UHGV virus genome: UHGV-0163196
Source: a virus
DNA length: 42,561 nt
Strand: one strand, 5' to 3'
Below are positions 6,174 through 28,458 of this stretch, piece by piece (positions within the stretch are counted from its first letter, which is position 1; each line of letters begins with the position of its first letter). The notes under the pieces were generated by a model. The model saw only the letters and a list, made by a program, of their open reading frames with translations, searched no databases and was not told the DNA's origin. The position numbers and the translations under genes were made by a program.

Positions 6174-6796
6174 TGGATACCTATAGAGTTACCAAGACTG
6201 GTTCCTTTTAGTCCATCAAACCACCCTGTTGACTTAATTACCGATTCATTTACTGGGGTGGTGGATTTAGTCCCGGAATTCTGCACCGCAGATGTACTAA
6301 CCCCGTCCTGCATATCGGATTTATCAGCAACGGTGACATTTTTTGTATGCGTTATGATGACTTCACGCAGGGTAAGCGTGCAGTTCAGCACGTTCTCGCT
6401 GGTTTTATCGGTCGTCACCTCAATGGCTCGCACCAGCATATTGGTGTACACCCTCTTCCCGGTAACCACATCGAACGGTACGCGCTCAAGCTGCATATCC
6501 AGCAGCTTTTGGTATGTCTCCTTTGGGCTAAGCCCAGCGCTAAGACCGATTGAAGATGTATCAATGAAATCCAGCAACGAACCGCCACCAGCGAAGCCGC
6601 ATTCCATTGTGACTTCACTGGGGCGCTTGTACGCATGATCGGCGATGAAACCCGAGGCACTATTCGTTGTTGGCTTCTCCACCGGGTGCTCAGTAATTTC
6701 GAGCGCATCAGAATGCTTTTCGGAGACGACCACGCTGGGAATTAATATGCCAATTCGCCGGGATTGCTGGCGAAAAATCGCTGATAAAATATCCAT
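6170..6796 (-). CDS. Tail protein (unknown family)
   Basis: 208 aa ORF immediately after the tape measure gene, overlapping its neighbours. Confidence 0.35.
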   Translation of the reverse strand: MDILSAIFRQQSRRIGILIPSVVVSEKHSDALEITEHPVEKPTTNSASGFIADHAYKRPSEVTMECGFAGGGSLLDFIDTSSIGLSAGLSPKETYQKLLDMQLERVPFDVVTGKRVYTNMLVRAIEVTTDKTSENVLNCTLTLREVIITHTKNVTVADKSDMQDGVSTSAVQNSGTKSTTPVNESVIKSTGWFDGLKGTSLGNSIGIQ

Positions 6797-8811
6797 TATC
6801 TCGGTCCTGCGGGGAGTTGCTGGGTTAACTGTGAATTCACGCCCTTTTGACGGTCAACAGTCAAACGGGCAGCTTCGCGAGGATCGGAAACGCCGTGGAT
6901 GTTAATGTTCGTTTCCTGCTGAATCACCGGGGCGCTGGTGGGCATGTTGCTCATTACTTTCGGAATGTAGTTGCGCGTTTCCTGCGGCATTAGCCCCATT
7001 CCATAACGCTTAACATTCCCGATCCCCCAGTTATATGATGCCAGTGCTTTACTAAGGTCTCCGCCGTTCTGCCGCAATAGCTGGCTAAGGTACTTAGCGG
7101 CTGCCTGAGCTGACTTTTCCGGGTCGAACACATCGTTACCACGCAGGCCCATGTCTCGCGCCGTACCATCCATGAACTGGAACAGACCTTTAGCGCCAGC
7201 GCCTGAAACGGCGAACTGATTACCGCCAGATTCCGTTATGGCCACACTGCGCAATAACCCCTCCGGAAGCCGGTAGAGCTGTTCCAGGTTGGTAAGCATC
7301 GGCTGCATCCATCCCAGCAGTTCAGAGCCTGCTTTGGTTGGCTGTGGCCGCTTAACTGACTGGCCGAGCTGTTCAGGCTCATCATCACCGAACCAGCCGC
7401 GCACCGTTCGGCCCACGCTGCGAGGATCGAATCCCCAGTGCTCTTTAATCCAGTCGGCGGTACCGTTGGCGCTATCTGTTACCATCGGCATCGCTGACGG
7501 ATTTTCGCTGCCCTGATTTAGCAGCTGTTTGCCTATACTAGCGGCCTGCGCCCAGTTGCCATCTTTTATGGCATTCAGCAAATCAGCGATCATGTTCAGC
7601 ATCTTGCCGAACTCACCCATTTGCGAAATGAAGTTGCTAAAATCCCACTTTAGGGACCATGACTTGGGGTCAATACCGAGCAACTTAGCCAGCGCTTTTG
7701 TCAGGTCCGTAACAGTCTTTTTCAGGTCACCAATCATTTTGACGGCCTGATCAATTTCAGTCTTCCATTTCCCCCAGTCAATCAGGCTTTTGCCACCTTC
7801 TTTCCACGTCTGGTAATCATCCAAGAGCAGACCAAGTGCAATAATAAGCGTCGTTATCATGCCCAAGGGTGATGACATGAAAGCGGTATTTAGCAGCCGC
7901 CATGCAACCAACAGCCCACTGAACAATGCGATAAGCTGCTGCGTGGCTGGGTTCAGCTTTTTGAACCAGGCGATCACACCCTCAACAGCTTGCCCAGTTC
8001 GCCATAACACGCGGGTAATCGCGTCACCTGCCCAGAGAATTCCTTTGATGATCTTCGTGATGACCGCTTCAATCTTCGGCCAGTTGTCGAGTATCTGCCT
8101 GCGGAAGTTATCAATACTGCCAGCAAGGCCACCAGCTAGGTTAGAGCCAATCTTGTCTTTCGCCTGTCCAAGCGTCATCGTCAGATTACGCATGGAGGTC
8201 ATGAAAATATTGGACTGTTTAGCCGCTGACTCAGCATTAAAACCAATACGCTTTGCCGTCAACGCGTACTCAGAACTGAGCTGCCCCATCCCTCTGCGCA
8301 TCGCCATCAGCGTGTTTTCATCGATGCCAAGCATCTGCGCGTATTGTTTCGCGCGGTAATACGGCATGTTGTTGAGCTTTTGCCCAACGCCAGTAAAGAT
8401 GGCCGCAGTATCACGCATCTTTCCGCTGGCATCGCGGGTCTGTACGCCCAGACGGTTCAGGAACCCTTCCGCCCCCGGATTGCTACGCATGAAACCAGCC
8501 AACCCTTCAAGAGAGGACATGGCCGACTCGGCGCTGGCACCGGTTTGCGATGCGGCATAGCCCAGCGCTTTGATGCCCTGGACGCTGGCCCCCGTCCGCT
8601 GGGATGCCCAGTAAATTTTATCCAGACCATTCGCGATCTGGGTGGTAAATCCGACAATGCTAAGCGCTGAGCCTTTCACCACCGCGCCGACCTTCAGAAC
8701 GTTCGCGGTAACGCCTTTCAGCACGGCTTCAAACTTATTAGCGCCAGCCTGATCGATATCGAATCCCAGCGAAACAAGGAAATCTTTAATCGTATCTGCG
8801 TTACCGCTCAT
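6796..8811 (-). CDS. Tail tape measure protein with C-terminal lytic transglycosylase domain
   Basis: 671 aa; helical N-terminal region with a hydrophobic segment, and a C-terminal SLT-like motif (…ESGGNQFAVSGAGAKGLFQFMDGTARDMGL…YNWG…). Confidence 0.75.
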   Translation of the reverse strand: MSGNADTIKDFLVSLGFDIDQAGANKFEAVLKGVTANVLKVGAVVKGSALSIVGFTTQIANGLDKIYWASQRTGASVQGIKALGYAASQTGASAESAMSSLEGLAGFMRSNPGAEGFLNRLGVQTRDASGKMRDTAAIFTGVGQKLNNMPYYRAKQYAQMLGIDENTLMAMRRGMGQLSSEYALTAKRIGFNAESAAKQSNIFMTSMRNLTMTLGQAKDKIGSNLAGGLAGSIDNFRRQILDNWPKIEAVITKIIKGILWAGDAITRVLWRTGQAVEGVIAWFKKLNPATQQLIALFSGLLVAWRLLNTAFMSSPLGMITTLIIALGLLLDDYQTWKEGGKSLIDWGKWKTEIDQAVKMIGDLKKTVTDLTKALAKLLGIDPKSWSLKWDFSNFISQMGEFGKMLNMIADLLNAIKDGNWAQAASIGKQLLNQGSENPSAMPMVTDSANGTADWIKEHWGFDPRSVGRTVRGWFGDDEPEQLGQSVKRPQPTKAGSELLGWMQPMLTNLEQLYRLPEGLLRSVAITESGGNQFAVSGAGAKGLFQFMDGTARDMGLRGNDVFDPEKSAQAAAKYLSQLLRQNGGDLSKALASYNWGIGNVKRYGMGLMPQETRNYIPKVMSNMPTSAPVIQQETNINIHGVSDPREAARLTVDRQKGVNSQLTQQLPAGPR

Positions 8812-14254: not shown

Positions 14255-14737
14255 TTAAATCTTCCAGGAGATTTCTGCATTGCCGTTAGCGTCACCGGCC
14301 CCTGTGAATTCGGCGTTGGTCAGCGCCACGTTTTTGCCACTGACGGACGTGGACATGAAGCCGCCCAGCGGCACTTTGATGGATTCATCAGTGGAGACGA
14401 CAACGTATACCGGGTCGCCTTTTTTGATGGTGCTGGCATCAAAATCAGAACCGAGATTAACGGTCATGTAGCCACGCTTCATGGCGTCACCCGGGAAGTT
14501 CTTATCCGTCCCCACCTGGCGAACCATGTCTGGCTGCGATGTGGTCGGATACGGACGAACGTAGATCCCCTTCACCTTGTCGGCGGTGTCACCGTCCGCC
14601 AGCGGCACGAAAAAGCCGTCAGCGTCATATTTGCCAGCCAGACCATAGGCAGCGAAGGCGTTAGCGGATTTAAGGATCACCGGTTCGACGGTTAAGTCCT
14701 GCGGGCGAGAGATAGCCCCGGCAATGCCAACAGGCAT
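14255..14737 (-). CDS. Head decoration or scaffold-like structural protein
   Basis: 160 aa ORF immediately upstream of the major capsid gene; first helper gene left of the inserted island. Confidence 0.45.
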   Translation of the reverse strand: MPVGIAGAISRPQDLTVEPVILKSANAFAAYGLAGKYDADGFFVPLADGDTADKVKGIYVRPYPTTSQPDMVRQVGTDKNFPGDAMKRGYMTVNLGSDFDASTIKKGDPVYVVVSTDESIKVPLGGFMSTSVSGKNVALTNAEFTGAGDANGNAEISWKI

Positions 14738-14969
14738 CCGGTACAGGAATGCAAGGCTATTATTTAATCACCTGAAATATAAGGGTTTATTTGCAGTCTG
14801 ATTTTGCGTGTAGTCCATAGGCTGCTCTGTGATGTATGTCGCTGAATGGGGTAAGTTACTCAATAACAGATCTGTAGGATTTACAGGGGATTTCAATATG
14901 CAAGCTGTGCCACCAGCCCATTAGCGAACGGCGCTATTTTCCGCGCGTGACGTGTCACGGCGCTGGTGG

Positions 14970-15443
14970 TTATCCCATGAATTTGCGGTATACCTCCCCG
15001 GCTTCTTCGGCGGTTAGGTTCGTTGTTTCCGTTCTGATCGGACCACCATCCTTACCCGTTGTTTCAACCTTTAATTTGTTGGTGTAAGCGTCCCCGCACT
15101 CTTTCGCGGCCTGTTCGATAAGCTGTGCTGTTAATGCGTAATTCTTGATTGCCTCTGCACGGTTCGCCATGCGATCGAGCATACGCAGCCGGTACGCTTT
15201 GTTAGCGATAGGGATATCGGATATTTCACTCTGGAAGCGGGCGCGAGTGTGATTAAAGAGTTCTACCCATTTTTGGCTAAGATTTTTAGCCATTGTATTT
15301 TCAGGGTTGTAGGCCGATATCTGTTGCCGGGTAACAACGATGCCAAAATCTTGTTTTACAAGTTCGACGATTCTGGAAGGGGGTTCATAGCAAGCTAATG
15401 ATTGAATAATCATAACCTTAGCCATTGTTGGTAATGCCGCCAT
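14970..15443 (-). CDS. Small terminase-like protein (Sf6 gp1-like; candidate packaging-redirection factor)
   Basis: 157 aa; C-terminus KLKVETTGKDGGPIRTETTNLTAEEA resembles the Sf6 gp1 terminus (…VGKDGGAIQIETSP…); lies far from terL, inside the island. Confidence 0.55.
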   Translation of the reverse strand: MAALPTMAKVMIIQSLACYEPPSRIVELVKQDFGIVVTRQQISAYNPENTMAKNLSQKWVELFNHTRARFQSEISDIPIANKAYRLRMLDRMANRAEAIKNYALTAQLIEQAAKECGDAYTNKLKVETTGKDGGPIRTETTNLTAEEAGEVYRKFMG

Positions 15444-15535
15444 TGTTCACCTTTTGACAAAGGAAATAAAAGTAGCGTGCTGAGTTCTGCCCCTGCACCG
15501 CTACTTAAAGTTACAGATCACGTCATGGGTAGCTA

Positions 15536-16108
15536 TCACTCGCTCTCCAGATCCTCAAGAGAGAAGCAAATATGCTGTGTTGAAACAAAATAGCTCAGCA
15601 TGCTGCTTACCTTGTTTGACGCGACGTAATTATAATGCTCGACCATCTTTGCTAACGCGATAATCTCCCACCAGTAATGCTTAACTAGCTTTAGCGAAAT
15701 TAAATAAGCCCGGCTATAGAGCTTGTCGCAATCATCTCCTGTTGCGCCTTGGTTCCTGTATTGCTCAAGCACTTTCCGAATATCGCTGGCGTCTCCTTTC
15801 CCTCCATTTTCCAGTAGTTTTTCAGGTGGTTCGCCTGAGTAAAGGTGTTGTGCCATTACGCCAGAAAAAGAGACGACCATCTGCGCCAGTTCATCTTTTC
15901 TGACGGGGAGATGTGAGCATACCGCCCGGCAATTATCGACCTCTTTGCCGTTAGCCAGTCGAGCAATACGAAACTCATCAGCAATAGATATCTCAATTTG
16001 CCTAGCACCCGTAAACCACGCAGCCATCGCGTGACCGGCTTCATGGATCGCGATATTTCTGTCCCACATAGGGCTTTTGCTGAATTCAACAATTACGCCA
16101 TCACTCAC
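15536..16108 (-). CDS. Standalone HExxH zinc metallopeptidase-like protein
   Basis: 190 aa with the motif IAIHEAGHAMAAW (HEAGH, as in FtsH/M41 and ImmA-like peptidases) and no ATPase domain. Confidence 0.5.
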   Translation of the reverse strand: MSDGVIVEFSKSPMWDRNIAIHEAGHAMAAWFTGARQIEISIADEFRIARLANGKEVDNCRAVCSHLPVRKDELAQMVVSFSGVMAQHLYSGEPPEKLLENGGKGDASDIRKVLEQYRNQGATGDDCDKLYSRAYLISLKLVKHYWWEIIALAKMVEHYNYVASNKVSSMLSYFVSTQHICFSLEDLESE

Positions 16109-16170
16109 GCTGCTTACTCTCCGTTAGATCTGTCATTTAGTTAAATTGAACTGCGTTGGGGGAGTCTCCA

Positions 16171-16350
16171 TCACACACTCCCTTCAACTGCTATTGATTC
16201 CAGCGCCTTAGCCACCAGCCCACGAGCAATTTGATGGACAGACGGCGCGACGCCAATATCGGAGCGCTGGCGTTCGCGCTCCTGGATCTTGCAGATTGCG
16301 GCGAACTGGTCGCCAGAGAGTAATACCGGCTTAACGTTTGGCTTTTTCAT
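16171..16350 (-). CDS. Small hypothetical protein (59 aa)
   Basis: Internal start MKKPNVKPVLLSG… of the 112 aa track ORF; the other reading would overlap the upstream 64 aa gene. Confidence 0.3.
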   Translation of the reverse strand: MKKPNVKPVLLSGDQFAAICKIQERERQRSDIGVAPSVHQIARGLVAKALESIAVEGSV

Positions 16351-16525
16351 CCTGTTCACTCCAGAACTTTGCATTCGCTTCGTTGACTTTTTCCAGATTG
16401 CGGCATTCGTTGTTGAAGTTGTTGCGCATCCGCAATTGCTCGGCCTGTTCACGGCCAAAGAGTTTACGCCCGGCGCTTTGCGGGTTTCCTGCAGCCAATT
16501 TCGGGTCATAAATAGCCATGCTCAT
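16331..16525 (-). CDS. Small basic hypothetical protein (64 aa)
   Basis: ATG preceded by AAGGAG with good spacing; lysine/glutamate-rich and probably helical. Confidence 0.4.
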   Translation of the reverse strand: MSMAIYDPKLAAGNPQSAGRKLFGREQAEQLRMRNNFNNECRNLEKVNEANAKFWSEQDEKAKR

Positions 16526-16531
16526 TGCTCC

Positions 16532-17095
16532 TTACTTCGTGCGATGCCAGAAACTGGCGTTATCGGTGTTAATGCTGCGAATGGCGTCGCCTGTGGAGAG
16601 AATCTTCGGTGAAACGTTGTTAACTCGCATGTAGTCGCCAACCTGCTCCAGAACGTCGATAGCCTGATCAAGCTGAATCTCTGATAGCGGGGTCGGATGT
16701 ACCGCACTGAATGCCTCAGCGGGTGCGTAACGCAGCACATCAAGCGCAACAAGGCGAGGATCGGTATCAGGAAGGGCGTTGTCATACTTTGGTGCTACAG
16801 CGCGTACCAGGCGCATAAATTCAGCGTCCATTGCCGTTGGTGCGGTAGAGGTGGGAGAAGCGCCGCTGCCACTACGTGTAATCATGTCACTATCGCGGGT
16901 GTACATCCGGCGCAAGCGGTCTCCGGTTGCAATGCGTGTTGCACGTTCCTGCTTAAGCGTCGTTGCAAGATTCGCAATGACGAGAGCCACAGGAAGCGAG
17001 CAGGTCAGCCTTTCGAACGTATCATCGGAGTAAGTCACCTCGACGGTACCACCAGCGTTATCACTTTCCAGATTAACATTGGTTATCTGTTTCAT
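16532..17095 (-). CDS. Hypothetical protein (187 aa), first gene of the island's left module
   Basis: ORF following a promoter-like AT-rich region at 17100-17250; no recognisable motif. Confidence 0.45.
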   Translation of the reverse strand: MKQITNVNLESDNAGGTVEVTYSDDTFERLTCSLPVALVIANLATTLKQERATRIATGDRLRRMYTRDSDMITRSGSGASPTSTAPTAMDAEFMRLVRAVAPKYDNALPDTDPRLVALDVLRYAPAEAFSAVHPTPLSEIQLDQAIDVLEQVGDYMRVNNVSPKILSTGDAIRSINTDNASFWHRTK

Positions 17096-17378
17096 TGTTC
17101 ATAACCTTTTGCGTTGTTTAAATTCTGATCATTGCATAAATTGCAACATTAGTAAATATCATTGCGCATATTGAAATGGCAAATCGACGTGATACTATGA
17201 CGGTGATCCACCATTGTGTGATTGCATAAACATGGTTATCAAAAGCCCTCGCCTCTCCAGCGCGGGCTTTTTCTTTTCCGCTCCGCAAAGTTGCCGTTTC
17301 CGCATACTTTCACTTAGGCGACGCCCCTCCAAATTCGTAATTACTCTCCGAAAAAACTCTATAGATAAGCAAAAACAT

Positions 17379-17675
17379 GTTGGTTCAGTTGGTTCAGTTG
17401 GTTCAATTTGTAAAGATTGTTGTTTTATAAGGATTATTTCTTTCAGAGTGAACCAACAAAGCCCCGTTTTGAACCAACAAACGCTATTTTCGTGTTGGTT
17501 CAGTGGGAAAGATTTACAGGCCAGCCAGAAAAAGGCGTTGGTTCAATAGCGGCATTTGTTGGTTCAAAATGGGCGTTTGTTGGTTCGGTGTTGGTTCACT
17601 TACAAGCATGTAAATGCATTAAATACATACACTTATATTAATTAAATAGTTACTGAACCAACTGAACCAACAAAA
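17379..17675. repeat. Iteron cluster: candidate satellite replication origin
   Basis: At least 12 copies of the core TTGGTTCA in both orientations (for example 17379-17405 tandem, 17449-17457, 17470-17478, 17494-17502, 17654-17670), interspersed with AT-rich DNA, immediately downstream of the primase-helicase gene. Confidence 0.7.
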
Positions 17676-17696
17676 AAACATCTCGTATGTGTGTTT

Positions 17697-20477
17697 TTAT
17701 TCTTCACCCTCCATCTCGTCGGGTCGTAGCTGGAGCACATAAACGTTTATCTGGCGTCCATCAATTCGCGGGGATTTACGCTGATACCCCCTTCCGCTGG
17801 CTGGCGGTTTCAGCACCCCAGCCCCGGCCAGCACACGGGCAAACTGTTTCGCGTTGAATCCCTTCGCAATCTCACCTTCGAATGCTGCCGGGAACGTGTA
17901 GAACACTATCGGATCAGCATCATGCGCCCCTTTCTGACGGTACCCGGCCAAATCCCGAATCGGCATGTCAGCCGGGTCATAAGGGTAAGGTGCAAATCGG
18001 CTCAGTCCGTATGCATTAAGAAACGCCTCTGCCTGCTCGATGATCTGCTTATGCTCACGGTTCCCCGTGCCAAACTCTTTCACCCAGGCGTTAAAGCCAT
18101 GCTGGATGGCGTCCCGGCTTTCCTGCTCCCCCCAGCCAGTGACAGGCATCCCAAGCACCAGCGCCGCCTCCAGAATGGCGAACCGCTCGCCTACACGATG
18201 AACCTGTTCGCCATAATCAGCGGGGATAAGACTGCGCCAGCGCTCTTGCGCCGCTCTGACAGCTTGTTTTGCCTCCTGCTGGTGGCCTGCAAGCCATTTA
18301 ATCCATTCACGGCCTGCGGCTCCGTGGTTCGTCTGGTAAGCCTCTTTGAGTGCGTCGGCGTGTTGCTTCCCGTTCTGGTACTCATGGTGCGTTACTGATT
18401 TCTCCATCGGTAAATTAAGCAGCCGCACCAGTTGTCCGGCCTTAACTTTCAGCCCACCAGCAGAAAGAAACGTCTCAATGTCCATTTCCCCGGTACTGAT
18501 CGCCACGGTACGCCAGCGCTTTAACTCGCGGTTGCCTCCCTCCTTCGCCCCCTGTAGCTTTCCGGCACCGTTAAACAGCGTGTAAGCTGACGTGGCAACG
18601 TCTTTGGCGCTACTGCCCTGCCCCACTTCGTCCAGCGGTAACAGGCTATCGTTATGCGCTTCCGCTTCGTTGGCGATACCCAGCGCAGTACCGTACCAGG
18701 TGAGGCGCAGGGCATCCGGTTCACCGTATAAACTGCTGGCAATGTTGGCGGTCGTTGTCTTCCCTGCGCTGGACTGTTCGAAAAGGTGAACACCGAAACC
18801 GTCAGCGCCAACAAGCCCGATCAGCGGTGCAGACAGCGCAGCCGCAACACCCAGCATCATTGACGGGTTTCCCAACGCAAGACGCGCCACCGAATCACGC
18901 CAGCTTTCCGGCGTTCCACTGACGGTATAGCCACCAGCCGCCGCACTGCGGCCACTGAATAAAAGCGGTATCTCTGGATCACCAATAACATCACCATCCG
19001 GCATGATGTACGCCCCGCTGTGCCAGCCTGTGGTGTGGCTGATCTGCCACTCCTTGCCGCTACCGGTTCGCTGTAGCCAGTCGGCCAGAATTGCCCGCAA
19101 CGATGGTTTGGTCGTCACACTGACACCGCCGTTTTTCAGAGTTCGCCATCCCTCGCGGTCGCCAATGTCCTCCCAAGGAAGCGCACGGGTAACTTGCCCC
19201 CGATTGCCGGGAACGTCCCAACGCAGGATCAGAAAGCGCTGTCTGGCGTTATCACTCCCCGCACCAGCAATCTCCAGCGGAGAGCATAGCCACGCCTCGG
19301 TATTGATAATTTCCCCTGTGTCTTTGTCCACTTTCGGGGTGATCCAGTGAATGCCATCCGAACGGCTCTCTACTCGCGGTTTAAGGTCGTCGTCGATACC
19401 AGGGCTTTTTTTGCCGCCGTCGATTGCTGTCAGTGTCGCACCCACTTTCTTACCCTCCGGTTGATACATTGAGTCGTTAAATGCTGCTGTGGCCGCTTCG
19501 AGGCCGTATTGCTGGTGGTAGTCGTTCCAGTCCGCTTTATAGTCCACTGGTGGCATGGAAACCCAGCCAGAAACGGCTTTCGCGGCTTTCTCTGCGGCCT
19601 CCTTGCCAGTGTTAACTTTCACTCCTTTAATTCCGTCACTTTCGCCCATCTGGTCGTTATCTGCGGCAATGATGATTTGTGCCTGTGGGTACTTCCGGCG
19701 CATCACTTCGGCAACGGGTAGCAGGTTGCCCGCGTCAATTGCTGCCACTGCCAGCGCGTCCGGGCGCATCAGGTGAACTGAAAGGGCCGTCGCCAGCCCC
19801 TCGGCAATTAAAACGCTCTGCGGCGATTCTGGCGCGTTTACGGCATGATATGCCCCGCGCTTTGCTGAACCTGTCAGGAGTCGCTTCTCTCCCTGCGGTG
19901 TAATGGTTTGCGCTGCTGCCACTGCGCCGGATTCGTCCACCAGCTCCAGCAATAACGAACCATCAGGCATAACCGGATAGTTAAACCCGGTCAGCCCTTT
20001 TGATTGCAGGTAATCAGATTCGCCCTGTGTGGCACTCTGGCGCATTCCGGCATACAGACGGGCAAACGTAGCCCTTCGCTGCTCTGCGTCCCCTGCTGCC
20101 TGTTTCTGGCGCTCCTGCTCACGCTGCTGGCGGTCAGCTTCCAGTTGCTCCCTTCTATGGCTCGCTGCCACCGGGTCGGATTGCGCTGCCAGGTAATCAA
20201 TACCCAGCACGTCAGCGGCAAGCTGTGCCGCCTCCGTAGTGTCGCAGTTGTTAACCCGCTTGATTAAATCCAGCCCGTCACCAGCGCCACACTGGTTGCA
20301 GATAAAGCTACCGCGCCCGTTGTCGTCGAATCTGAAACGGTCTTTTCCACCACATGCAGGGCATGGAGAATGGCGGCGCGATGAATCAGGCACGTCGATA
20401 GACAACCCAGCCAGCACATAAGGCCAGCGCCCTGCTGCGGCGCTGGTCACTTCGCGGATAAGGTCGATATTACGCAT
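17697..20477 (-). CDS. P4 alpha-like primase-helicase (zinc-ribbon, TOPRIM, D5-like helicase)
   Basis: Zinc ribbon CPACGG…CNQCG, TOPRIM-like IIIAADNDQ, Walker A SSAGKTTT; ~925 aa. Start taken at MRNIDLIRE. Confidence 0.85.
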   Translation of the reverse strand: MRNIDLIREVTSAAAGRWPYVLAGLSIDVPDSSRRHSPCPACGGKDRFRFDDNGRGSFICNQCGAGDGLDLIKRVNNCDTTEAAQLAADVLGIDYLAAQSDPVAASHRREQLEADRQQREQERQKQAAGDAEQRRATFARLYAGMRQSATQGESDYLQSKGLTGFNYPVMPDGSLLLELVDESGAVAAAQTITPQGEKRLLTGSAKRGAYHAVNAPESPQSVLIAEGLATALSVHLMRPDALAVAAIDAGNLLPVAEVMRRKYPQAQIIIAADNDQMGESDGIKGVKVNTGKEAAEKAAKAVSGWVSMPPVDYKADWNDYHQQYGLEAATAAFNDSMYQPEGKKVGATLTAIDGGKKSPGIDDDLKPRVESRSDGIHWITPKVDKDTGEIINTEAWLCSPLEIAGAGSDNARQRFLILRWDVPGNRGQVTRALPWEDIGDREGWRTLKNGGVSVTTKPSLRAILADWLQRTGSGKEWQISHTTGWHSGAYIMPDGDVIGDPEIPLLFSGRSAAAGGYTVSGTPESWRDSVARLALGNPSMMLGVAAALSAPLIGLVGADGFGVHLFEQSSAGKTTTANIASSLYGEPDALRLTWYGTALGIANEAEAHNDSLLPLDEVGQGSSAKDVATSAYTLFNGAGKLQGAKEGGNRELKRWRTVAISTGEMDIETFLSAGGLKVKAGQLVRLLNLPMEKSVTHHEYQNGKQHADALKEAYQTNHGAAGREWIKWLAGHQQEAKQAVRAAQERWRSLIPADYGEQVHRVGERFAILEAALVLGMPVTGWGEQESRDAIQHGFNAWVKEFGTGNREHKQIIEQAEAFLNAYGLSRFAPYPYDPADMPIRDLAGYRQKGAHDADPIVFYTFPAAFEGEIAKGFNAKQFARVLAGAGVLKPPASGRGYQRKSPRIDGRQINVYVLQLRPDEMEGEE

Positions 20478-20811
20478 GGTTGCCTCCTGCCACGGTCGCG
20501 CCCATATCATTAATCATGCTTTGCCATATCTCGCGCCCGACGTCAGTCAATCCGTCCTTAGTGACGCAACGATCAAGAAGCTCGATCCCCACGGTTTCCC
20601 ACTGCGGGTAGAACACTTTCATGGCTGCCAGTGTGTAGCTATCGATCAGGCTGCGAACGCCTTTTACTCCATTGACGATTTCCACACGGACGGCGAGGCC
20701 GTCCGCATCAACCATGAAATAGTCCCCGCCGCTGGTGGCGGTAATGTGGTTATACAGTGCCGACGCATACTTATTCGCCAGCGCATTCAGTCGGAAATTT
20801 TTAGTAATCAT
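20470..20811 (-). CDS. Hypothetical protein (113 aa)
   Basis: ORF coupled to the primase start; no recognisable motif. Confidence 0.45.
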   Translation of the reverse strand: MITKNFRLNALANKYASALYNHITATSGGDYFMVDADGLAVRVEIVNGVKGVRSLIDSYTLAAMKVFYPQWETVGIELLDRCVTKDGLTDVGREIWQSMINDMGATVAGGNHA

Positions 20812-20820
20812 GTCGCCCCC

Positions 20821-21447
20821 TCAGTGCGCCAGCGGCATTTCAGGCCAGCCGTTTTCATCCAGTTCAGCTATAAAGCTGTTGTGAAGTTCAGCAAGCGTTT
20901 CACGCCCGAACGGGGTCAACTCGCCGCGCTCCGTGTCCAGCATGGCCTGATAAAAAACAATGGCGTTCGCCGTTCCCTGCTCAATGCCGTAGCGCTCAAT
21001 CATTGCGCCCTCGATGTTGTTCGCCATCGCCAGCCGTTCAGCAAACGGGTAAACCACCATGCCCGCATTACCATTGGAGTAAATCGCCACCTGCGATGAT
21101 GTGCCGTCAGCCTCAGTAACCGTGGTGGTGCCGTTCTCGCGCTTCATCTCAGAAACGAACGTCGCAGCAATCAGCCAGCGCCACATAGTGACGTTATGCT
21201 GCGCGGTGAAGTCGAACCAGCCACGCGCCCCGCCATCAGCAACGGCAAAATGAATGGCGTAGCCGATATCGGGCGTATCGTCGTACTCTCCCGCATCCAG
21301 ACGGCTTACAGCGCTCTCATAGGTGATAATGGCTACATGCTCATACATCCCGGCATCGTTGCGGGTCATGATATTGACGCCGTGCGGTGTGGCTTCGGCG
21401 TGGAACAGGTCGGGATTTCCCGGTTTAATGGTCAGTATATTGCTCAT
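20821..21447 (-). CDS. Hypothetical protein (208 aa)
   Basis: ORF in the island's early operon; no recognisable motif. Confidence 0.45.
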   Translation of the reverse strand: MSNILTIKPGNPDLFHAEATPHGVNIMTRNDAGMYEHVAIITYESAVSRLDAGEYDDTPDIGYAIHFAVADGGARGWFDFTAQHNVTMWRWLIAATFVSEMKRENGTTTVTEADGTSSQVAIYSNGNAGMVVYPFAERLAMANNIEGAMIERYGIEQGTANAIVFYQAMLDTERGELTPFGRETLAELHNSFIAELDENGWPEMPLAH

Positions 21448-21665
21448 GCTTTGCCCTCCCGATATTCACGCATTACATGGTCAGCTAGCTTGCTTTCAGC
21501 CTCGCTCATTGCTTCGGGCACACCGTGTAACAGCGTCAGAATGGAACCTATAAGGCGTGGTAAATCGGGATCTGTTTTATTGGTGGTGCTCTCCAGCCAC
21601 ATGGACAAAACAGCCTGTGCCTGTTCAATCTGGCAGGCAGCATCAATCAGTTGTAACTGGCTCAT
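21444..21665 (-). CDS. Hypothetical protein (73 aa)
   Basis: Small ORF overlapping its neighbours by 4 nt. Confidence 0.35.
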   Translation of the reverse strand: MSQLQLIDAACQIEQAQAVLSMWLESTTNKTDPDLPRLIGSILTLLHGVPEAMSEAESKLADHVMREYREGKA

Positions 21666-21925
21666 GCGCTGCCCTCCGCATCAATTCTGGCTATATCGAC
21701 AATCGTCAGGACTTTACTAAGCCAGCAATACGCGATGGCTGCTTGCTCAACTTCGAGGAGTGGTAATAAATCGGTCATAACGTGAGCCAGCCCATTGCGG
21801 GCGCGGGTCATGCGTTCTGCGGTACGCTCTGCCAGCGTGAAAGAGTCAGGGTACGGCTGTTCGCGGGATAGCATCGCCTCGGCCTCAAGATCTGCAGGAT
21901 GGCGATAGATGGTATGAATGTTCAC
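21662..21925 (-). CDS. Hypothetical protein (87 aa; GTG start or internal Met)
   Basis: ORF in series with the neighbouring small genes; start codon uncertain. Confidence 0.35.
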   Translation of the reverse strand: MNIHTIYRHPADLEAEAMLSREQPYPDSFTLAERTAERMTRARNGLAHVMTDLLPLLEVEQAAIAYCWLSKVLTIVDIARIDAEGSA

Positions 21926-22101
21926 GCTGCCACCTCCTGAATACGAGTAATACGAACGTGCTTATAACCGCCTTTATTCGCCAGTAGTTGCGCAGTCGAT
22001 TTAGCTGTTTCTGGACTGGTGCTAGTCATGGTGTAGTGAATGCCGACGGTGTTACCGCGCTTGTTAACAGCGTATCCGTCGATCTGGAAGGTTTTACGCA
22101 T
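21922..22101 (-). CDS. Small hypothetical protein (59 aa)
   Basis: Hand-translated MRKTFQIDGYAVNKRGNTVGIHYTMTSTSPETAKSTAQLLANKGGYKHVRITRIQEVAA; below the ORF track length cut-off. Confidence 0.3.
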   Translation of the reverse strand: MRKTFQIDGYAVNKRGNTVGIHYTMTSTSPETAKSTAQLLANKGGYKHVRITRIQEVAA

Positions 22102-22972
22102 TTCCGACCTCCATTGCTAAACGGGACTGGATAGCTGCCGCTTTACTGCCTAATTGCAGGTAAGTACGAGTTATCGCAGGGTTGCTATGACCCAGCATTT
22201 CAGAGGCCACTAATAGGCCCTGTTCGCCACCTGCGGACATGAGGTTAAAGGCGGCTATTTTGCGGCTTGAGTAGGCGCTCAGGCGCAATTTAGCGTTAAT
22301 GAAACGGGTAAACCACGCCATGACGCCATGAAGTTTGCGCCAGATGGTTTGGCGAGTAACGCTACCTTCCAGACGTTGACAACGGTTACTTTCGATTTGA
22401 GAGCGGGAAAATACCAGGTCGTCCTCCACCAGATTCCGATCCTGACGGTCACGCAGCCGCTTGATAATGCCGGGGGGTAACTGTTTGGTGTCGTGCTTGA
22501 CGTCAGCCTTAGCCACCAGCCCGAACACAATCGCCTGTTCTTCGTCGTTCATATCGGCGGCCAGTTCATCACAGCCGATACTATCCCACTTCATGTAGGC
22601 GATATGGTCAGCGGCGAGCCGCGCGGCGTCCTTGCGCTGCTGGCGCACAATTTCAATACCTTTGCGGGTTGCCCGCGCTTCTGCGGCTTTGGTCTGTTTG
22701 GAAACGATAATTGTCGCCTGTCCAGTTTCCCAATTGATGCAGGAATAGCGCAGGTTGCAAACGTCGCTGGTACGCCAGCCGGTTACGGTCGCAATATCCC
22801 ACCAGAGCAACACCCAATCGGGCTGTGTCTGCTGGATGCGCTCGCGTAGCTTGCGCTGCTCGTCACGGTCATAGACAGGGGTCATGGTGCGACTGCCCTT
22901 TGTGCTCGCCGCTTTAACGACATTGCCGCGCAGCTCGCGGGCTTTGGCTGTCAGAGTCTGGAGGTTAAACAT
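22094..22972 (-). CDS. Second tyrosine recombinase (short phage-integrase family, no arm-binding N-domain)
   Basis: About 292 aa from MFNLQTLTAKAREL; C-terminal LGHSNPAITRTYLQ with a candidate catalytic Tyr and conserved Arg/His positions. Confidence 0.65.
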   Translation of the reverse strand: MFNLQTLTAKARELRGNVVKAASTKGSRTMTPVYDRDEQRKLRERIQQTQPDWVLLWWDIATVTGWRTSDVCNLRYSCINWETGQATIIVSKQTKAAEARATRKGIEIVRQQRKDAARLAADHIAYMKWDSIGCDELAADMNDEEQAIVFGLVAKADVKHDTKQLPPGIIKRLRDRQDRNLVEDDLVFSRSQIESNRCQRLEGSVTRQTIWRKLHGVMAWFTRFINAKLRLSAYSSRKIAAFNLMSAGGEQGLLVASEMLGHSNPAITRTYLQLGSKAAAIQSRLAMEVGNA

Positions 22973-23153
22973 GACGCACCTCCGGCACTGGCAGACGTGC
23001 GGCCAGAGACAAAATAAAGTGCGGCGCAAGGATGCGGCGGGCTTCGCGTTCGGTCGCAGCCTCAACGGACAGACGGCAAGGTTTGGCTTTTTTATCGTGG
23101 CGATTCAGCGCGAGAAAGCGCCAGGTGAATTTTGAGTGTGCGGATCTAGCCAT
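22965..23153 (-). CDS. Small protein (possibly Icd/Ash-like)
   Basis: 62 aa, MARSAHSKFTWRFLALNRHDKKAKPCRLSVEA…; recalled resemblance to small Icd-like prophage proteins only. Confidence 0.35.
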   Translation of the reverse strand: MARSAHSKFTWRFLALNRHDKKAKPCRLSVEAATEREARRILAPHFILSLAARLPVPEVRHV

Positions 23154-23473
23154 TTTTAGCGGCTCCTAGAACATATTGAAGGAGTCTCGCCAGATGCTGC
23201 TAAACATGGGTGGCGAGACGTGACGGGGTTAGCAGACTGGCGTTCTAGGAAACCAGCAGGCGTTAAGCCTCCCCACCACGCCCCGCCATAAATCGGGGGT
23301 ATGGTTGGTTTTCGGGCGTAAAAATACCGCTATACGGAAATCAGCGGCTACCCGCTAGAACGTTCAGGCTGCTAAACCCGGCACCCGTTTTGTGAGGTGC
23401 GAAATAATCATAACCACACTACCCCGTTAAGCGCAAGGGAAATATCCCCTGCGCCCACAATGCAAACTTGTGA
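23154..23473. promoter_or_regulatory. Repeat-rich intergenic region (candidate recombinase/regulator binding sites)
   Basis: Motifs CTAGAAC and GCTGCTAAAC recur in direct and inverted orientation at 23161-23205, 23227-23250 and 23353-23377. Confidence 0.4.
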
Positions 23474-24544
23474 TTAGTACCCGCGAGAAGCGTAAACTCG
23501 TGCCATGCCAGCCCAATGAGAGAAAAGAATTTCCCACTTAATTGGGTTGTAGGTAATACTTCCATCGACTGCGGCAGCATTCCATGCCCGATCAGAAATA
23601 GAGCTATCTTTAGCAGTTTTCCCCCATTCAACAATATCCCTTGCTAAAGCCTGTACACATGCTCGACTGACTACCTTTTCGTCAACGTACGCCCCAACAT
23701 CAGAGCATGACTCCATACTCATGTTCAGGCTATTTTTAAGGGACTCCAGCCCGGCCACTGACATAAAGCGACGACCATTAGCGTATGCAACACCGTCATT
23801 CCTGATAGTGAACTTAACAGTGTGGAATGCGTCAACAATCATCCGCTGCTCTGGCGTCGGGTTCTGCCATAGCACAAGGTTAATCTCTCTCTCAGAAGCT
23901 ATTGATTCTGCTTTCTCACGCTTAACTCGTGCATCCCGTTCTGCCTGGTATTGTTTTTGATTTTCATCATGAGCCTTTTGGTAACTAGAGGCTAATGCGT
24001 CTCTGTTTTTGGCAAATGCTGCAATGCTATTTTTGAAATCGCTTCTGCTAACCTTGTTTAACCCCATACTCCAGCGGTCATTTTCGTAATCATCATAAAT
24101 GGCATCAACTTTTGCCGGATTACTCAGCACAGTCGCCAGATTAACCGGAATTTTAGCCATCTCGTCACTGATTCTCGCTACATGTTCGAAAGTCGATATA
24201 GAGCCAACTTCATGACTCCCATACTCATGATAAGCGGCATAAAAAATTGGAATAGATTGAGGTTTTTCGTTCACTGACTTAATGATGCTTTTTTCATCAC
24301 ATGACTGTTCACCCCATTTGAAAACACTTTTCCCACCATTTTTGTATGTGTTGCAATCATCAATACCCAAACGAACCAGCGCATCCCATCCGGGCCGTTT
24401 CTTGTAATCCTCGCTCTTGACAACATGCATTGTGGTTAGGGCTTTCGCAGGATCTAACTTGCCAGCGGTACAAGACACGATAGGAAAGGCCAGAGAAGCG
24501 CAGGCTGCTATCCTGAAAAGGCTCGTCAATCTTTCTTTTTTCAT
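23474..24544 (-). CDS. Lipoprotein of unknown function (island cargo)
   Basis: 356 aa; N-terminus MKKERLTSLFRIAACASLAFPIVSC carries a signal peptide with lipobox-like Cys; AT-richer than its surroundings; flanked by ~0.3 and ~0.9 kb non-coding DNA. Confidence 0.6.
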   Translation of the reverse strand: MKKERLTSLFRIAACASLAFPIVSCTAGKLDPAKALTTMHVVKSEDYKKRPGWDALVRLGIDDCNTYKNGGKSVFKWGEQSCDEKSIIKSVNEKPQSIPIFYAAYHEYGSHEVGSISTFEHVARISDEMAKIPVNLATVLSNPAKVDAIYDDYENDRWSMGLNKVSRSDFKNSIAAFAKNRDALASSYQKAHDENQKQYQAERDARVKREKAESIASEREINLVLWQNPTPEQRMIVDAFHTVKFTIRNDGVAYANGRRFMSVAGLESLKNSLNMSMESCSDVGAYVDEKVVSRACVQALARDIVEWGKTAKDSSISDRAWNAAAVDGSITYNPIKWEILFSHWAGMARVYASRGY

Positions 24545-24708
24545 CGTCCTAATGCTCTTTCAAACCAAGAATGTAGGACATAGTAAATTGTGGTTAATGG
24601 CAAGTCGATATAAAGGCCGGGTTATTGGCTTCGGTGCCAATATCATTTCTCCGAAATTTCATAACGCCTGTAATCGCTCGTTTCCCCATCTTGGGGACAT
24701 TTCAAAAC

Positions 24709-24828
24709 TGCGAATCAAAGTGCGAATGGAACTGCGAATTCGCAAAGAGAGAGCGCCGCTCAAAGCAGGCCGGATAAGGCTTCGCGGACATATTGCGAAT
24801 GCGAATCCACCAGAAACGAAACGCGAAT
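24709..24828. repeat. GCGAAT repeat cluster including the palindrome TGCGAATTCGCA
   Basis: Six copies of (T)GCGAAT within 120 bp; the 12-bp palindrome at 24733-24744 also occurs twice in the helper terS gene. Confidence 0.55.
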
Positions 24829-25384
24829 CACCCATAAACAAAACCGATACGCAGGGAGCGTACTGCCCGTATTCAATCGGCCGAAAAGTCAGCCGATTAA
24901 AATCATGCCCGGCTATCCCCTGAAATTTCAGGAGATCGAGAGCCACCAGCAGAGAACCGTTCATGCCATCGGTAACTTGCAGCCCGAAGCTCAAATCTGA
25001 GCGTTGACCGCCAGCCAGAAGAAACCATTTTAAATCCCGCGCCTTCTCTTTGGATGAACAGGGTTACTCCCCGTAATGCTGTGAACTGCCACGATGATTC
25101 GGGGTTGTGTTGCGCTGGCCTTTGAGTCCCGCACAAACACTGACCCACAAAATTTTTGTAGGTGACTGGCCCTCTTGATGAGGTGCTGTTTTGCGTAACC
25201 CTTAATGAGTTGTGCAAAGGCTCAACCCTTCAAAAGGGTTGCCTAACCACCGGCGATAGTAATAACCGCCAACCTATGAACACTATGAACACCTTTGAGC
25301 ATTTTTCTATAAACATTCCACTACTGCCCTATTTGATGCCTTTCTCTGGCTGGCCTGTGTAAGTTACCGTTGCTGGGAACTGAC

Positions 25385-25420
25385 AATAAAAAAGGCTTGC
25401 CCCTCTCAGGTAACAAGCCT
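25385..25420 (-). terminator. Putative intrinsic terminator downstream of alpA
   Basis: Stem aggcttg/caagcct at 25393-25420 with a run of A on the plus strand at 25386-25392 (U-run on the minus transcript). Confidence 0.4.
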
Positions 25421-25438
25421 TGTCTATCGCTCTGGATC

Positions 25439-25651
25439 TCACTCACTACAGATTCCGCGCTTTTGGCTCTGTCTTCCGATCCACGCCTCCACCTCATCGC
25501 GATACCAGCAATTGCGGCCGCCAACTTTGAAGGGCATCGGAAAGCCGTTCCCCTCATCCTTCAGAAATTCATAGAACGCAGAATCAGAACGGTAGCGTAG
25601 ACGGGCTTTAACTTCGACTTTGAGCAAAATATCACTGTTAGATATGGACAT
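25439..25651 (-). CDS. alpA: AlpA-family transcriptional regulator/excisionase
   Basis: 70 aa with the typical AlpA pattern (…FPMPFKVGGRNCWYRDEVEAWI…), directly downstream of the integrase gene. Confidence 0.75.
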   Translation of the reverse strand: MSISNSDILLKVEVKARLRYRSDSAFYEFLKDEGNGFPMPFKVGGRNCWYRDEVEAWIGRQSQKRGICSE

Positions 25652-25793
25652 AAAAACCTCATTATATATTCGATATAATTATATATGATTTGAATAAAAA
25701 AAACGCATTCCGGTTAGCTTTGGGCATAAAAAAAGCTGGCTTAAAGCCAGCTATACCCGTTTGAAATCATGATTATCCAGAAATGGATGTGCC

Positions 25794-27023
25794 TTACACA
25801 ACCAGCCTCAAGCCCTTATCGCCGCTGGTCTCCAGTATTTCGCCACACTCTGCGGCCTCGATAAAGTCCCCCCACCATTGCATTAAAACCCGGCGTTTTT
25901 CCAGATAGTCGCTACGGTTATAAACATTTCGAATCGCATCGGCGCTTTTGTGAGCGAGTGCAGCCTCAATCACATCAGGGTTGAACCCCTCGTCATTTAA
26001 AACTGTAGATGCCAACGCCCTGAACCCATGAGGAACAATCAGCCCTTTAAACGACGTTTTGTGTATCCCGGCCTGAGTCGCACAGCGTGAGATCGGCTTA
26101 TTTTCTTTTCGCCATGAGGGGAAAACATAATCGCAGCGCTTCCACTTTTCGGCCTCTTTAAGCACGTTTATAGCCTGGCTCGATAATGGGACTACGTGGG
26201 GGCGCTTTCCTTTCATCCGGCTTGCAGGGATTTGCCAGATTGAGTTATCAAAATCAATCTCATTCCAGAGAGCGCCGCCAGCCTCCGAAGGCCGGACCAT
26301 CGTAATGATCTGGAATAATAATGCCAGCTTTGATGGCTCCCATAAGCTCAACTCGTTCCATGCGCTTAAAAATTCGGGCAACCGCTCTTTCTGTAAAGTC
26401 GCTCTTGGCTCGTTTTTTTCAGCCGGGAATGCTTTACCAATTTTCGATAGCGGGTTGTGCTCAATAACCCCAATGTTTACCGCATAATCCATTATGGCGT
26501 TGATGGTAATAACCATTTTCGTAAGCGTTGATGGCCTTTCCCTGAAAGGTTTAAAAGCCTGAATAGTATCGGCTGCGTTTATTTTATGTACCGTGGTATG
26601 CCTAAAAATCGTGGAAAGATGCTTCAACGTCACATTGTGCGATTCAAGCGTGTTGCTTCTCGCACCTTCTTTAATCTTGATTTTTAGCCATTCATCGGCA
26701 ACGGCCTGAAATGACTGCGCGTACATTTTACGCTGTTCATTCCTGGCATCTTTTTTGACTTCGTTCGGATCTATCCCTCGCGCTACCATACGGCGCAGTT
26801 TCGAACGTTCCTCCCTCGCTTCGGACAAAGTAAACTCCGGGTATCGTCCAATAGTATAGGTTTGTCTCTTCTTCGTTACCGGGTGTACATACCGAAAACG
26901 CCATGACTTACCGCCCCGGCTTGTGATGTAAAGCAACAAACCGAAACCATCGTGCAAACTGAAATCCTTGCCCTGTGCCTTCGCGCTTTTCACTTCGACG
27001 CTAGTTAGTGGCCTAACAATCAT
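25794..27023 (-). CDS. int: P4-type tyrosine integrase
   Basis: 409 aa; N-terminal arm-binding domain typical of P4-like integrases (…DGFGLLLYITSRGGKSWRFRY…) and a C-terminal catalytic domain. Confidence 0.85.
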   Translation of the reverse strand: MIVRPLTSVEVKSAKAQGKDFSLHDGFGLLLYITSRGGKSWRFRYVHPVTKKRQTYTIGRYPEFTLSEAREERSKLRRMVARGIDPNEVKKDARNEQRKMYAQSFQAVADEWLKIKIKEGARSNTLESHNVTLKHLSTIFRHTTVHKINAADTIQAFKPFRERPSTLTKMVITINAIMDYAVNIGVIEHNPLSKIGKAFPAEKNEPRATLQKERLPEFLSAWNELSLWEPSKLALLFQIITMVRPSEAGGALWNEIDFDNSIWQIPASRMKGKRPHVVPLSSQAINVLKEAEKWKRCDYVFPSWRKENKPISRCATQAGIHKTSFKGLIVPHGFRALASTVLNDEGFNPDVIEAALAHKSADAIRNVYNRSDYLEKRRVLMQWWGDFIEAAECGEILETSGDKGLRLVV

Positions 27024-27237
27024 TCAACACCTCTCTGGCTACCATGTAATGCAAACGGCGCATGATTCTCTTTCTAGTCCCTCATGTACCGAATCAAAGC
27101 GAAATCCGGCGAATAAATCCGCACATGTTCGGAGTGTCATTTTTATGGTTCAGGCCAGTAACGCCGTATGATTCCGAACGATAACGCACTGATTAATAGA
27201 TATTAGTTGCATAAGGTACAGATATGCAGTCATTGGA

Positions 27238-28458
27238 TTATCCTTTGCGGTTAGACCAGAAGTCGGCGTTTTGTTTGTTCAGGGAAGCGATGCTGGTCAT
27301 GCCCATATTTGGACGTTGTGCATCGCCCGTGGTGCTGCGGGTGTTTCGCCCTTTGGCAATCTCTGACACGGCGTTAAACGCCATATCTACCGATTGCTTG
27401 GGCAATTTGCGGATATCTGCATCACCGACAACCTGGCGAACCAGTGTTTTGTCAGCGGCGGACAGCACATCACGTTTGAACGCGGTCGGTTTCACCTTAC
27501 GGCTCAGATCGATACCCGGGACGATAACTTCGGCACGATAAGCAGCGTCACCAGTAATCGTGGTTTCTTCTTCATCGTCCTCGCCGTCACCGGTCGGATT
27601 ATCGTCAGGCTTATTGTCGTTATCGCCCGTCGCAGTTCCTTCGAGCTTAGCCAGCAGGGCTTTGAGCAAGGTTTTGATATCGTCCTCGCCGTCGCCGGTT
27701 GGCTCTCCGCCCATTTCCGGCTTTTTGTCCGGCAATGGTTGCTGCGGTGAAAGGTTAATGTTGAGGTTAACGCCGCTCGGCAGATCCCCTTCGTCACCCG
27801 TTACCGCCGCTGGCGCAGAGTCCAGCAGTTCGTTCATGGTGTCAGCGTCACCCGTTTTGATGGCCGTGCGCATGCGGGTCCACCAGCTTTTCTTTTGATT
27901 TGCCATTGTGTCTCTGTCTCCAATTGCACAACGATTTCCGGCTCTGCCTTTGGGGACAAGAGCCACATGGTTTCCGGTAATATCGACCTGCTCGGCTTTA
28001 CCTGGCTCGGTCTGCTCGTACTCCGCGTCATAGCCGCACGACACTTCACGCAGGCCATCTTCGATAAGCTGAATGGCGTTTTCGTCTTTGACGATAAGGT
28101 CAGCCAGCATCAAATCAGACTGATCACCAGTCCCGCGCCGAACGTTCTGAAGATGCCCGACCGCAAGCTCTTTCCAGTTCTCGGGGTTGACCAGCCGCAC
28201 ATTTCCGTTTTCATCTTCAGGATGCAGGATCGTGATGCTCATCCCTTCGAATGAGGCGAGCGTGGCCGGATGGAATACCTGCTCAGGAGAGCGCGTTACG
28301 ACTATTTCACCGAACTTATCGGGTTTCAGTTTTGGCAGGTCATCAGCACCATAGAGCTGCTTACCTGTTCGTCCTATCGGCACGTCTTTGCACAGCAGCG
28401 AGCCGTCAGCCAGCTGATAACGGGTTTCCCCCAGCCGGGTATTGAAAAAATATTTCAT
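27238..28458 (-). CDS. Capsid scaffold/maturation protein (putative), with acidic Gly/Asp-rich linker
   Basis: 406 aa ORF downstream of the head-morphogenesis gene; central low-complexity acidic region. Confidence 0.45.

Follow-up and report, generated by a model that had tools for sequence, protein, structure and literature searches.

What is the function of a dense array of short repeats that lies just past the stop codon of a primase-helicase gene? The question is raised by virus genome UHGV-0163196, a stretch of 42,561 nucleotides that was analysed at its full length and is referred to below as the window. The window corresponds to a prophage of the E. coli type, whose structural module is SEN34/Omnitron-like, and both the gene (pri-rep, product Pri-Rep or Rep) and the array reside in a 12.5-kb island that interrupts this prophage. 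A first-pass annotation had proposed the array as a candidate satellite origin recognised by the adjacent primase-helicase. Here we examine this proposal in the array itself, in the island and protein to which it belongs, and in related loci.

The Repeat Array

The 9-mer GTTGGTTCA is present as 11 exact copies and a single variant, GTTGGTTCG, at 17579. Eight copies are on the + strand (starting at 17379, 17388, 17397, 17494, 17537, 17558, 17579 and 17590) and four on the − strand (17449, 17470, 17654 and 17663), giving start-to-start spacings, in order, of 9, 9, 52, 21, 24, 43, 21, 21, 11, 64 and 9 bp. Exactly 12 copies agree with the earlier count of at least 12 occurrences of an 8-9 bp core in both orientations. 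The start at 17379 held as well, but the end at 17675 did not, the final copy stopping at 17671, directly downstream of the primase-helicase gene as described, at a distance of 25 nt from its stop codon. Upon alignment of the 12 copies, positions 1-8 were identical in 12 of 12 and the flanks were essentially random, indicating that the repeat unit is a sharply bounded 9-mer.

The 8-mer TTGGTTCA has 11 exact matches in the 42.5-kb window, all of them within 17380-17670, versus 1.76 expected from 100 dinucleotide-preserving shuffles of the whole window, none of which reached 11. No exact copy of TTGGTTCA or GTTGGTTCA was found outside the array, either in the island or in the remaining window, and the 12 one-mismatch matches to GTTGGTTCA outside the array are near the shuffle background (9.9 expected, whole window).

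The arrangement of the copies is palindromic. Alignment of the left half with the reverse complement of the right half scored 130.5, versus 90.5 for the direct alignment of the two halves and 70.3 ± 5.4 for shuffles. Read from outside to inside, each half consists of tandem iterons with a 9-bp period, an AT-rich spacer, and inverted iterons at 11- or 21-bp spacing. In the Rep-proximal half these are the tandem iterons at 17654-17671, the spacer and the inverted iterons at 17537, 17558, 17579 and 17590 (spacing 21, 21 and 11), while the Rep-distal half contains three tandem iterons at 17379-17405, its spacer, and the iterons at 17449 and 17470 (21-bp spacing) and 17494. The two spacers, whose composition is given in Table 1, account for the earlier description of repeats interspersed with AT-rich DNA. 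When 40-bp stretches of the island are ranked by nearest-neighbour stability, the spacers come second and third among the least stable, and the iterons on opposite sides of each spacer point in opposite orientation.

The array contains no DnaA, IHF or Fis consensus and no GATC sites, a promoter and terminator scan of it yielded nothing above background, and an Rfam search of it returned no RNA family. A sub-threshold Rfam match to OrzO-P falls on a hairpin at 17193-17271. Within this stretch, the GC-rich hairpin listed in Table 1 could possibly be the terminator of the rep transcript, a tentative assignment given that the terminator scan did not call it. Two open reading frames over the array, 17214-17549(+) and 17417-17641(+), were rejected as genes: both have TTG starts and extend across the repeats, and in L003, a close relative, the AT spacer differs by an indel of 1 nt (spacing 51 vs 52).

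Table 1. Positions of the array, the adjacent gene and other features of the island and its borders in the window
Feature	Position	Strand	Remarks
Cement/minor-capsid gene	14255-14737		insertion at gene start
Left att core (GCATCCGGTACAGGAATGCA)	14734-14753		homology to Omnitron breaks and resumes, 20-nt overlap
DUF2280 protein, small-terminase-like	14970-15443		in island
187-aa protein	16532-17095		next co-oriented gene past array
GC-rich hairpin, T-runs on both sides	17241-17271		inverted repeat just beyond array
Whole iteron array, 12 x GTTGGTTCA	17379-17671		imperfect ~290-bp palindrome, centre near 17520
Rep-distal half (putative half-origin)	17379-17502		mirror image of Rep-proximal half
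Rep-proximal half (putative half-origin)	17537-17671		tandem pair, AT spacer, four inverted iterons
AT-rich spacers	17406-17448; 17599-17653		77% AT; 78% AT
Central spacer	17503-17536		34 bp, 50% AT; dyad centre
Pri-Rep gene, 937 aa	17697-20510	−	Zn-ribbon primase, Toprim and DUF927 domains; stop codon 17697-17699
Zn-ribbon	20271-20378	−	Pri-Rep domain
Toprim	19503-19814	−	Pri-Rep domain
DUF927 helicase	18519-19358	−	Pri-Rep domain
Winged-helix-like C-terminal domain	17727-17909	−	residues 868-928; structure model
Part co-varying with iteron word (...PPASGRGYQRKSPRIDGRQINVYVL)	17730-17819	−	residues 898-927; covariation
C4 antisense RNA	23206-23293	−	Rfam
isrK-like element	23320-23400	−	Rfam
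Satellite integrase	25794-27023	−	arm-type DNA-binding domain
Right att core (GCATAAGGTACAGATATGCA)	27209-27228		comparison with uninterrupted phage Omnitron
DUF2213 head gene	27238-28458		borders island

The Island and Its Helper Prophage

The island (about 14754-27208) is flanked in the prophage by the DUF2213 head gene on one side and the cement/minor-capsid gene on the other. Comparison with the uninterrupted phage Omnitron revealed the att core as an imperfect 20-nt repeat that overlaps the start codon of the cement/minor-capsid gene; no long direct repeats, of 10 nt or more, were found at the island ends. The island genes are all co-oriented, also with the prophage late operon. In addition to the integrase and Pri-Rep, they include an AlpA-like ORF of 70 aa that scores below the Pfam threshold and whose equivalent in a second copy of the island, in E. 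coli EC2001 (L001), is annotated AlpA in RefSeq. A C4 antisense RNA (RF01695) was detected above threshold at 75 bits and its isrK-like neighbour just below threshold at 44.6 bits, the pair resembling an RNA immunity module of the P4 type within the island. When rep plus array were compared with the phage collection by Megablast, no match was obtained, suggesting that the element is a satellite and not a catalogued phage. Judged from sequence, the island is a helper-embedded PICI satellite, and the satellite context that had been presumed for the array is borne out by a PICI-type island inside a prophage, with int, an AlpA-like gene and pri-rep, and with att sites placed against Omnitron.

Helper-embedded PICIs were described by Mageeney et al. 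2023 (PMC10111431), who listed 14 insertion sites, grouped DUF927 primases in a 'Primase' family and noted an ori downstream of pri; the origin sequence was not analysed. Like those elements, the window island combines int, an AlpA-like gene and a primase, and sits within a prophage late operon whose orientation it shares; the prophage is SEN34-like, and the insertion is at the start of its cement/minor-capsid gene. The island of E. coli EC2001 (15181-27013) occupies the same prophage site and has an origin region 97% identical to that of the window. Its cargo differs: additional genes for baseplate, baseplate plug and spike mirror tail genes that the helper itself carries, suggesting the capture of helper late genes.

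A Chimeric Primase-Helicase

Homologues of the protein begin at M12, so that the true start of Pri-Rep is probably at 20477, giving 926 aa. The protein matches PHROG 1139 'DNA primase'. Residues 18-351 are 35% identical to the primase domain of P4 alpha (E 1e-45), and the DUF927 domain was detected with a Pfam E of 3e-45. A phmmer search against PDB aligned residues 436-833 with the SaPIbov1 Rep 8tch (E 1.5e-15) and also returned the Cch helicase 5dgk. The first-pass annotation had called this primase alpha-like; the term applies to the N-terminal primase domain but not to the helicase and origin-binding part, which is DUF927/SaPI-Rep-like and not D5-type. On these similarities, the predicted Pri-Rep is a chimera in which a P4-alpha-type primase is joined to a SaPI-Rep-type helicase.

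A sub-family of Rep (L003, L055, L059, L060, L063, L085 and L091) has an unrelated N-terminus of about 150 aa and no zinc-ribbon/Toprim primase, and its origin layout is unchanged. In these satellites, primase domains of the P4-alpha type and helicase domains of the D5 or DUF927 type appear, from the sequences compared, to be shuffled commonly. At the other end of the protein, a structure model of moderate confidence (pLDDT 77) places the last ~30 residues in the beta-hairpin of a winged-helix-like domain; with Foldseek, no known structure matched the modelled C-terminal fragment significantly over its whole length (best E 0.03).

Conservation of the Array Among Relatives

A scan with one genome per species identified 80 loci, nearly all in Enterobacterales, that encode Pri-Rep relatives with 49-81% identity. 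The first-pass annotation had regarded absence of the repeats from related islands as evidence against an origin; a like-built array is kept 3' of the homologous gene in about 74 of these 80 loci. Within the 450 nt past the stop codon, most of them have a 7-9-mer in about 10-13 copies, the number being 5-6 in half arrays. The array is also retained in three loci where the Rep gene is frameshifted, while in five of the 80 (L035, L052, L070, L077 and L084) none was found within 2.5 kb of the intact gene.

The sequence that is repeated, here called the iteron word, varies, with at least 13 different words among the 80 loci. GTTGGTTCA is used at 39, GTTGTCTCA at nine, GTCGGTTCA at five and ACGGGTTA at four, and GTTGTACCA, AGTGTGTCA, GTCGGGTMA, CGTGGTTCA, GTGGGTTA, GTTGTCCCA, GGTCGGTTT, ATGGGTTTC and CCGGTTCA are found at one or two loci each. 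The layout is common to 11 word classes: two to three tandem copies, an AT spacer and three to four inverted copies at 11 or 21 bp, followed by the mirror image. It remains constant though words and spacer sequences change completely, and the commonest total is 12 copies. The portion that adjoins the gene in nearly all relatives is the Rep-proximal half, and at about half of the GTTGGTTCA loci it is the only half within 2.5 kb. A query with a single GTTGGTTCA half-array matched in about 500 of 5426 complete E. coli genomes.

One relative, L041 (Yersinia pekkanenii), seemingly has the 3' end of rep with its iteron array in triplicate, as well as an ORF for an HNH endonuclease with a match to the Rep C-terminus (P0193), and may represent tandem satellites or a mobile insertion in rep.

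The distribution of the array bears on its possible use in packaging. Satellites often redirect packaging, and the presence of the DUF2280 gene in the island would fit an array that serves as the pac site for this small-terminase-like protein. The array, however, is always tied to the rep stop codon, and occurs in L003 and L090, whose annotated gene sets have neither DUF2280 nor a terminase, making a pac site a most improbable reading.

Covariation of the Iteron Word with the Rep C-Terminus

The last 600 residues of 71 proteins were aligned, and identity in 20-residue windows was compared between pairs with the same word and pairs with different words. The difference peaked at residues 903-922, where same-word pairs share 0.84 identity and different-word pairs 0.39, a difference of 0.45. 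Up to roughly residue 890 it was at most about 0.2 (median 0.11), and with shuffled word labels it never rose above 0.14. The same trend is visible in the residues themselves: all 39 proteins associated with GTTGGTTCA, whose bodies are 57-98% identical to that of the window protein, contain G-R-G-[YF]-Q-R-K-S-P-R, and the corresponding motif is QGRV-RE in the closest GTTGTCTCA relatives and QRKTPR in one GTCGGTTCA protein. Several independent word switches are visible among near-identical Reps with different words (body and tail identities of 96% and 63% for L007/L018, 90% and 47% for L015/L024, 89% and 33% for L003/L085, and 86% and 37% for L046/L066). These results lend computational support to the claim that the array is recognised by the adjacent primase-helicase, the word co-varying with the C-terminal ~30 residues.

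The motif QQKSPR is found with GTTGGTTCA in L091 and with CGTGGTTCA in L059, the two proteins differing just upstream of it (GRGY and GQRF, respectively), which indicates that any recognition 'code' does not lie in one residue.

The wing codons lie within about 120 bp of the array, and linkage therefore contributes to the covariation signal. The acidic tail (residues 928-937) is nearer still to the array yet poorly conserved within a word class, arguing for selection on the wing. Linkage is also what would lend plausibility to non-functional or selfish repeats travelling with the 3' end of the gene, as physical proximity alone gives some covariation with neighbouring coding sequence. Such repeats would hardly be expected to keep copy number, spacing, orientation and AT spacers constant across 11 word classes, or an invariant 9-mer between random flanks, and we give this explanation very little credence.

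Comparison with the genes on the other side of the array addressed a regulatory role, in which the repeats would be operators for a regulator, for example the 187-aa protein or AlpA, controlling the downstream genes. The position of the array between rep and the next co-oriented gene, whose L001 equivalent is annotated in RefSeq as an XRE-family regulator, is compatible with this idea. The first downstream gene, however, belongs to 24 different families among the 39 GTTGGTTCA loci and shows no covariation with the word, one family co-occurring with five different iterons, whereas the word tracks the Rep C-terminus. Moreover, a layout of twelve sites across 290 bp, with AT-rich spacers in two places, is not that of an operator. 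We consider an operator function very unlikely.

Circular Records and Split Arrays

Two complete circular records filed as plasmids, of 12,152 bp (E. coli) and 15,995 bp (K. pneumoniae), each encode int and a Pri-Rep relative and contain 12 and 11 copies of GTTGGTTCA, respectively; AlpA is annotated in one of them. The annotation of neither circle includes a plasmid replication protein. From their gene content, both are evidently excised satellites of the Pri-Rep family, and they give indirect support to an origin in the array.

In relatives, 0.17 to 7.5 kb of extra DNA is found at the dyad centre, between the halves. In the 12-kb circle (L090), the halves are located at 6540-6650 and 8436-8556, and the mirror half is thus 1.8 kb off. 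The array is also split in L002, L004 and L005, representing a dinD-adjacent island of E. coli 042 that is present in ~450 other complete genomes, where P22-like ejection-protein genes lie between the halves. One half remains beside rep in these cases and the mirror half, 1.8 kb (L090) or about 7.5 kb distant, adjoins a PerC-family gene. Since the splits occur at the dyad centre, the centre seems to be a permissive or preferred site for cargo.

Comparison with Known Origins

The array resembles origins described for other satellites. In SaPIs and Gram-negative PICIs, the origin is immediately 3' of rep and has two iteron sets around an AT-rich region (PMC6092414), and the C-terminal winged helix of SaPI Rep binds 6-12 iterons (PMC9371898). 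The array in the window likewise lies 3' of rep, with two iteron sets around AT-rich DNA, and its neighbour is a SaPI-Rep-homologous, putatively hexameric helicase. The island itself has the int, AlpA-like and pri-rep genes and the unidirectional gene order of a PICI/SaPI element, and is presumably inducible. The origins of SaPIbov1, SaPI1 and SaPI5, with their Rep/PriRep initiator-helicases, are the Gram-positive counterpart of the window array, whose island has a Gram-negative host. They differ from it in iteron length (5-6 bp in SaPIs versus 9 bp), and the window array has in addition two AT-rich regions, a palindromic two-half layout, and a P4-alpha-type primase fused to Rep.

A match in gene order is EcCICFT073, which shares the order int, alpA-like, Icd-like, DUF4222, pri-rep and ori. 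Its origin, too, directly follows the stop codon of rep and has AT-rich DNA surrounded by iterons in tandem and inverted arrangement. A pri-ori plasmid derived from EcCICFT073 was maintained only when it carried both parts (Fillol-Salom et al. 2018, PMC6092414). The two systems differ in the iteron, CTGTCTACC in EcCICFT073, and in Rep, which there is of the D5_N/DUF5906/Pox_D5 type with no significant similarity to the Pri-Rep of the window. Four Pri-Rep variants in E. coli PICIs are mentioned in the same study, the supplements of which contain neither the iteron word nor DUF927; a full-text literature search for the iteron word returned unrelated papers only.

Satellite P4 offers a second comparison. 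Its crr is immediately 3' of alpha and, like the window array, has 8-bp repeats in both orientations, 9-bp tandem pairs and A/T-rich stretches. The C-terminal domain of P4 alpha reportedly binds the crr repeats (structure 1KA8), a finding credited to Ziegelin et al. in 1993-95. Unlike the inverted, dyad-symmetric pair in the window, crr consists of two direct 120-bp repeats, each with five type-I iterons, and the D5/SF3-type helicase of alpha (D5_N/DUF5906/Pox_D5) contrasts with the DUF927 domain of the window protein. The two initiators are thus homologous in the primase domain only.

In P4, the annotated ori is a second iteron cluster, 4.5 kb from crr. This arrangement, together with halves that lie 1.8-7.5 kb apart in some relatives of the window island, raises the alternative that the array is a crr-like cis element that Rep needs and binds, and that synthesis starts elsewhere or at one half. 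The window, however, has a single iteron cluster, with inverted halves, so that ori and crr functions, if any, would both be inside 17379-17671, and in PICIs the region 3' of rep is the origin itself (PMC6092414). A purely crr-like role is accordingly an improbable reading, if the least improbable of the alternatives to an origin.

Iteron plasmids (pPS10, R6K, RK2, F and P1) and the lambda origin use direct repeats of 17-22 bp and a Rep or O protein without helicase, and need DnaA boxes and host DnaB. They are similar to the window array in placing repeated initiator sites beside an AT-rich unwinding element. The array, in contrast, has 9-bp sites in both orientations and no DnaA box, and its putative initiator is itself a helicase-primase.

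A Candidate Satellite Origin and Its Implications

The proposal that the array is a satellite origin was supported on every available computational test, and the array very probably serves a PICI-type satellite, located inside the prophage late operon, as its origin of vegetative replication.

The steps of binding, melting, self-loading and initiation at the array are inferred from work on SaPIs and EcCICFT073. In such a mechanism, Pri-Rep of the satellite would be made after induction, and its C-terminal domain, chiefly the beta-hairpin 'wing' (GRGYQRKSPRIDGRQ), would bind the 9-bp iterons, which, within the 290-bp palindrome, flank the two easily melted AT-rich spacers in opposite orientation. 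Rep hexamers would assemble on both halves and melt the AT-rich DNA without host DnaA. Rep would then load itself as the replicative helicase, and its own primase domain would prime synthesis. We infer that the 12 sites correspond to two Rep hexamers.

The origin design has already been published for PICIs (PMC6092414), and the picture of how such origins work is unchanged. The palindromic 2 x 6 layout, the separable halves, and the covariation of wing and iteron across at least 13 words may go beyond published text descriptions, figures aside. A more specific and tentative model can be built on these features. The array could be a dyad-symmetric pad on which two Rep hexamers land, with 2 x 6 sites and separable halves, as in the variants with 0.17-7.5 kb of cargo, the P4 ori/crr pair possibly being an extreme split; the last ~30 residues of Rep and the iterons could together form a swappable cassette, with at least 13 mutually exclusive specificities. 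If this cassette model is true, several satellites would share one cell without firing each other's origins.

The analysis pins down the probable origin used by a family of phage satellites that is very widespread in enterobacteria. It also provides candidate recognition pairs, the wing motif QRKSPR with GTTGGTTCA and, in the closest relatives, QGRV-RE with GTTGTCTCA, which may be used for predicting whether satellite replicons are compatible, for constructing small orthogonal replicons, and for marking the origins of satellites when genomes are annotated.
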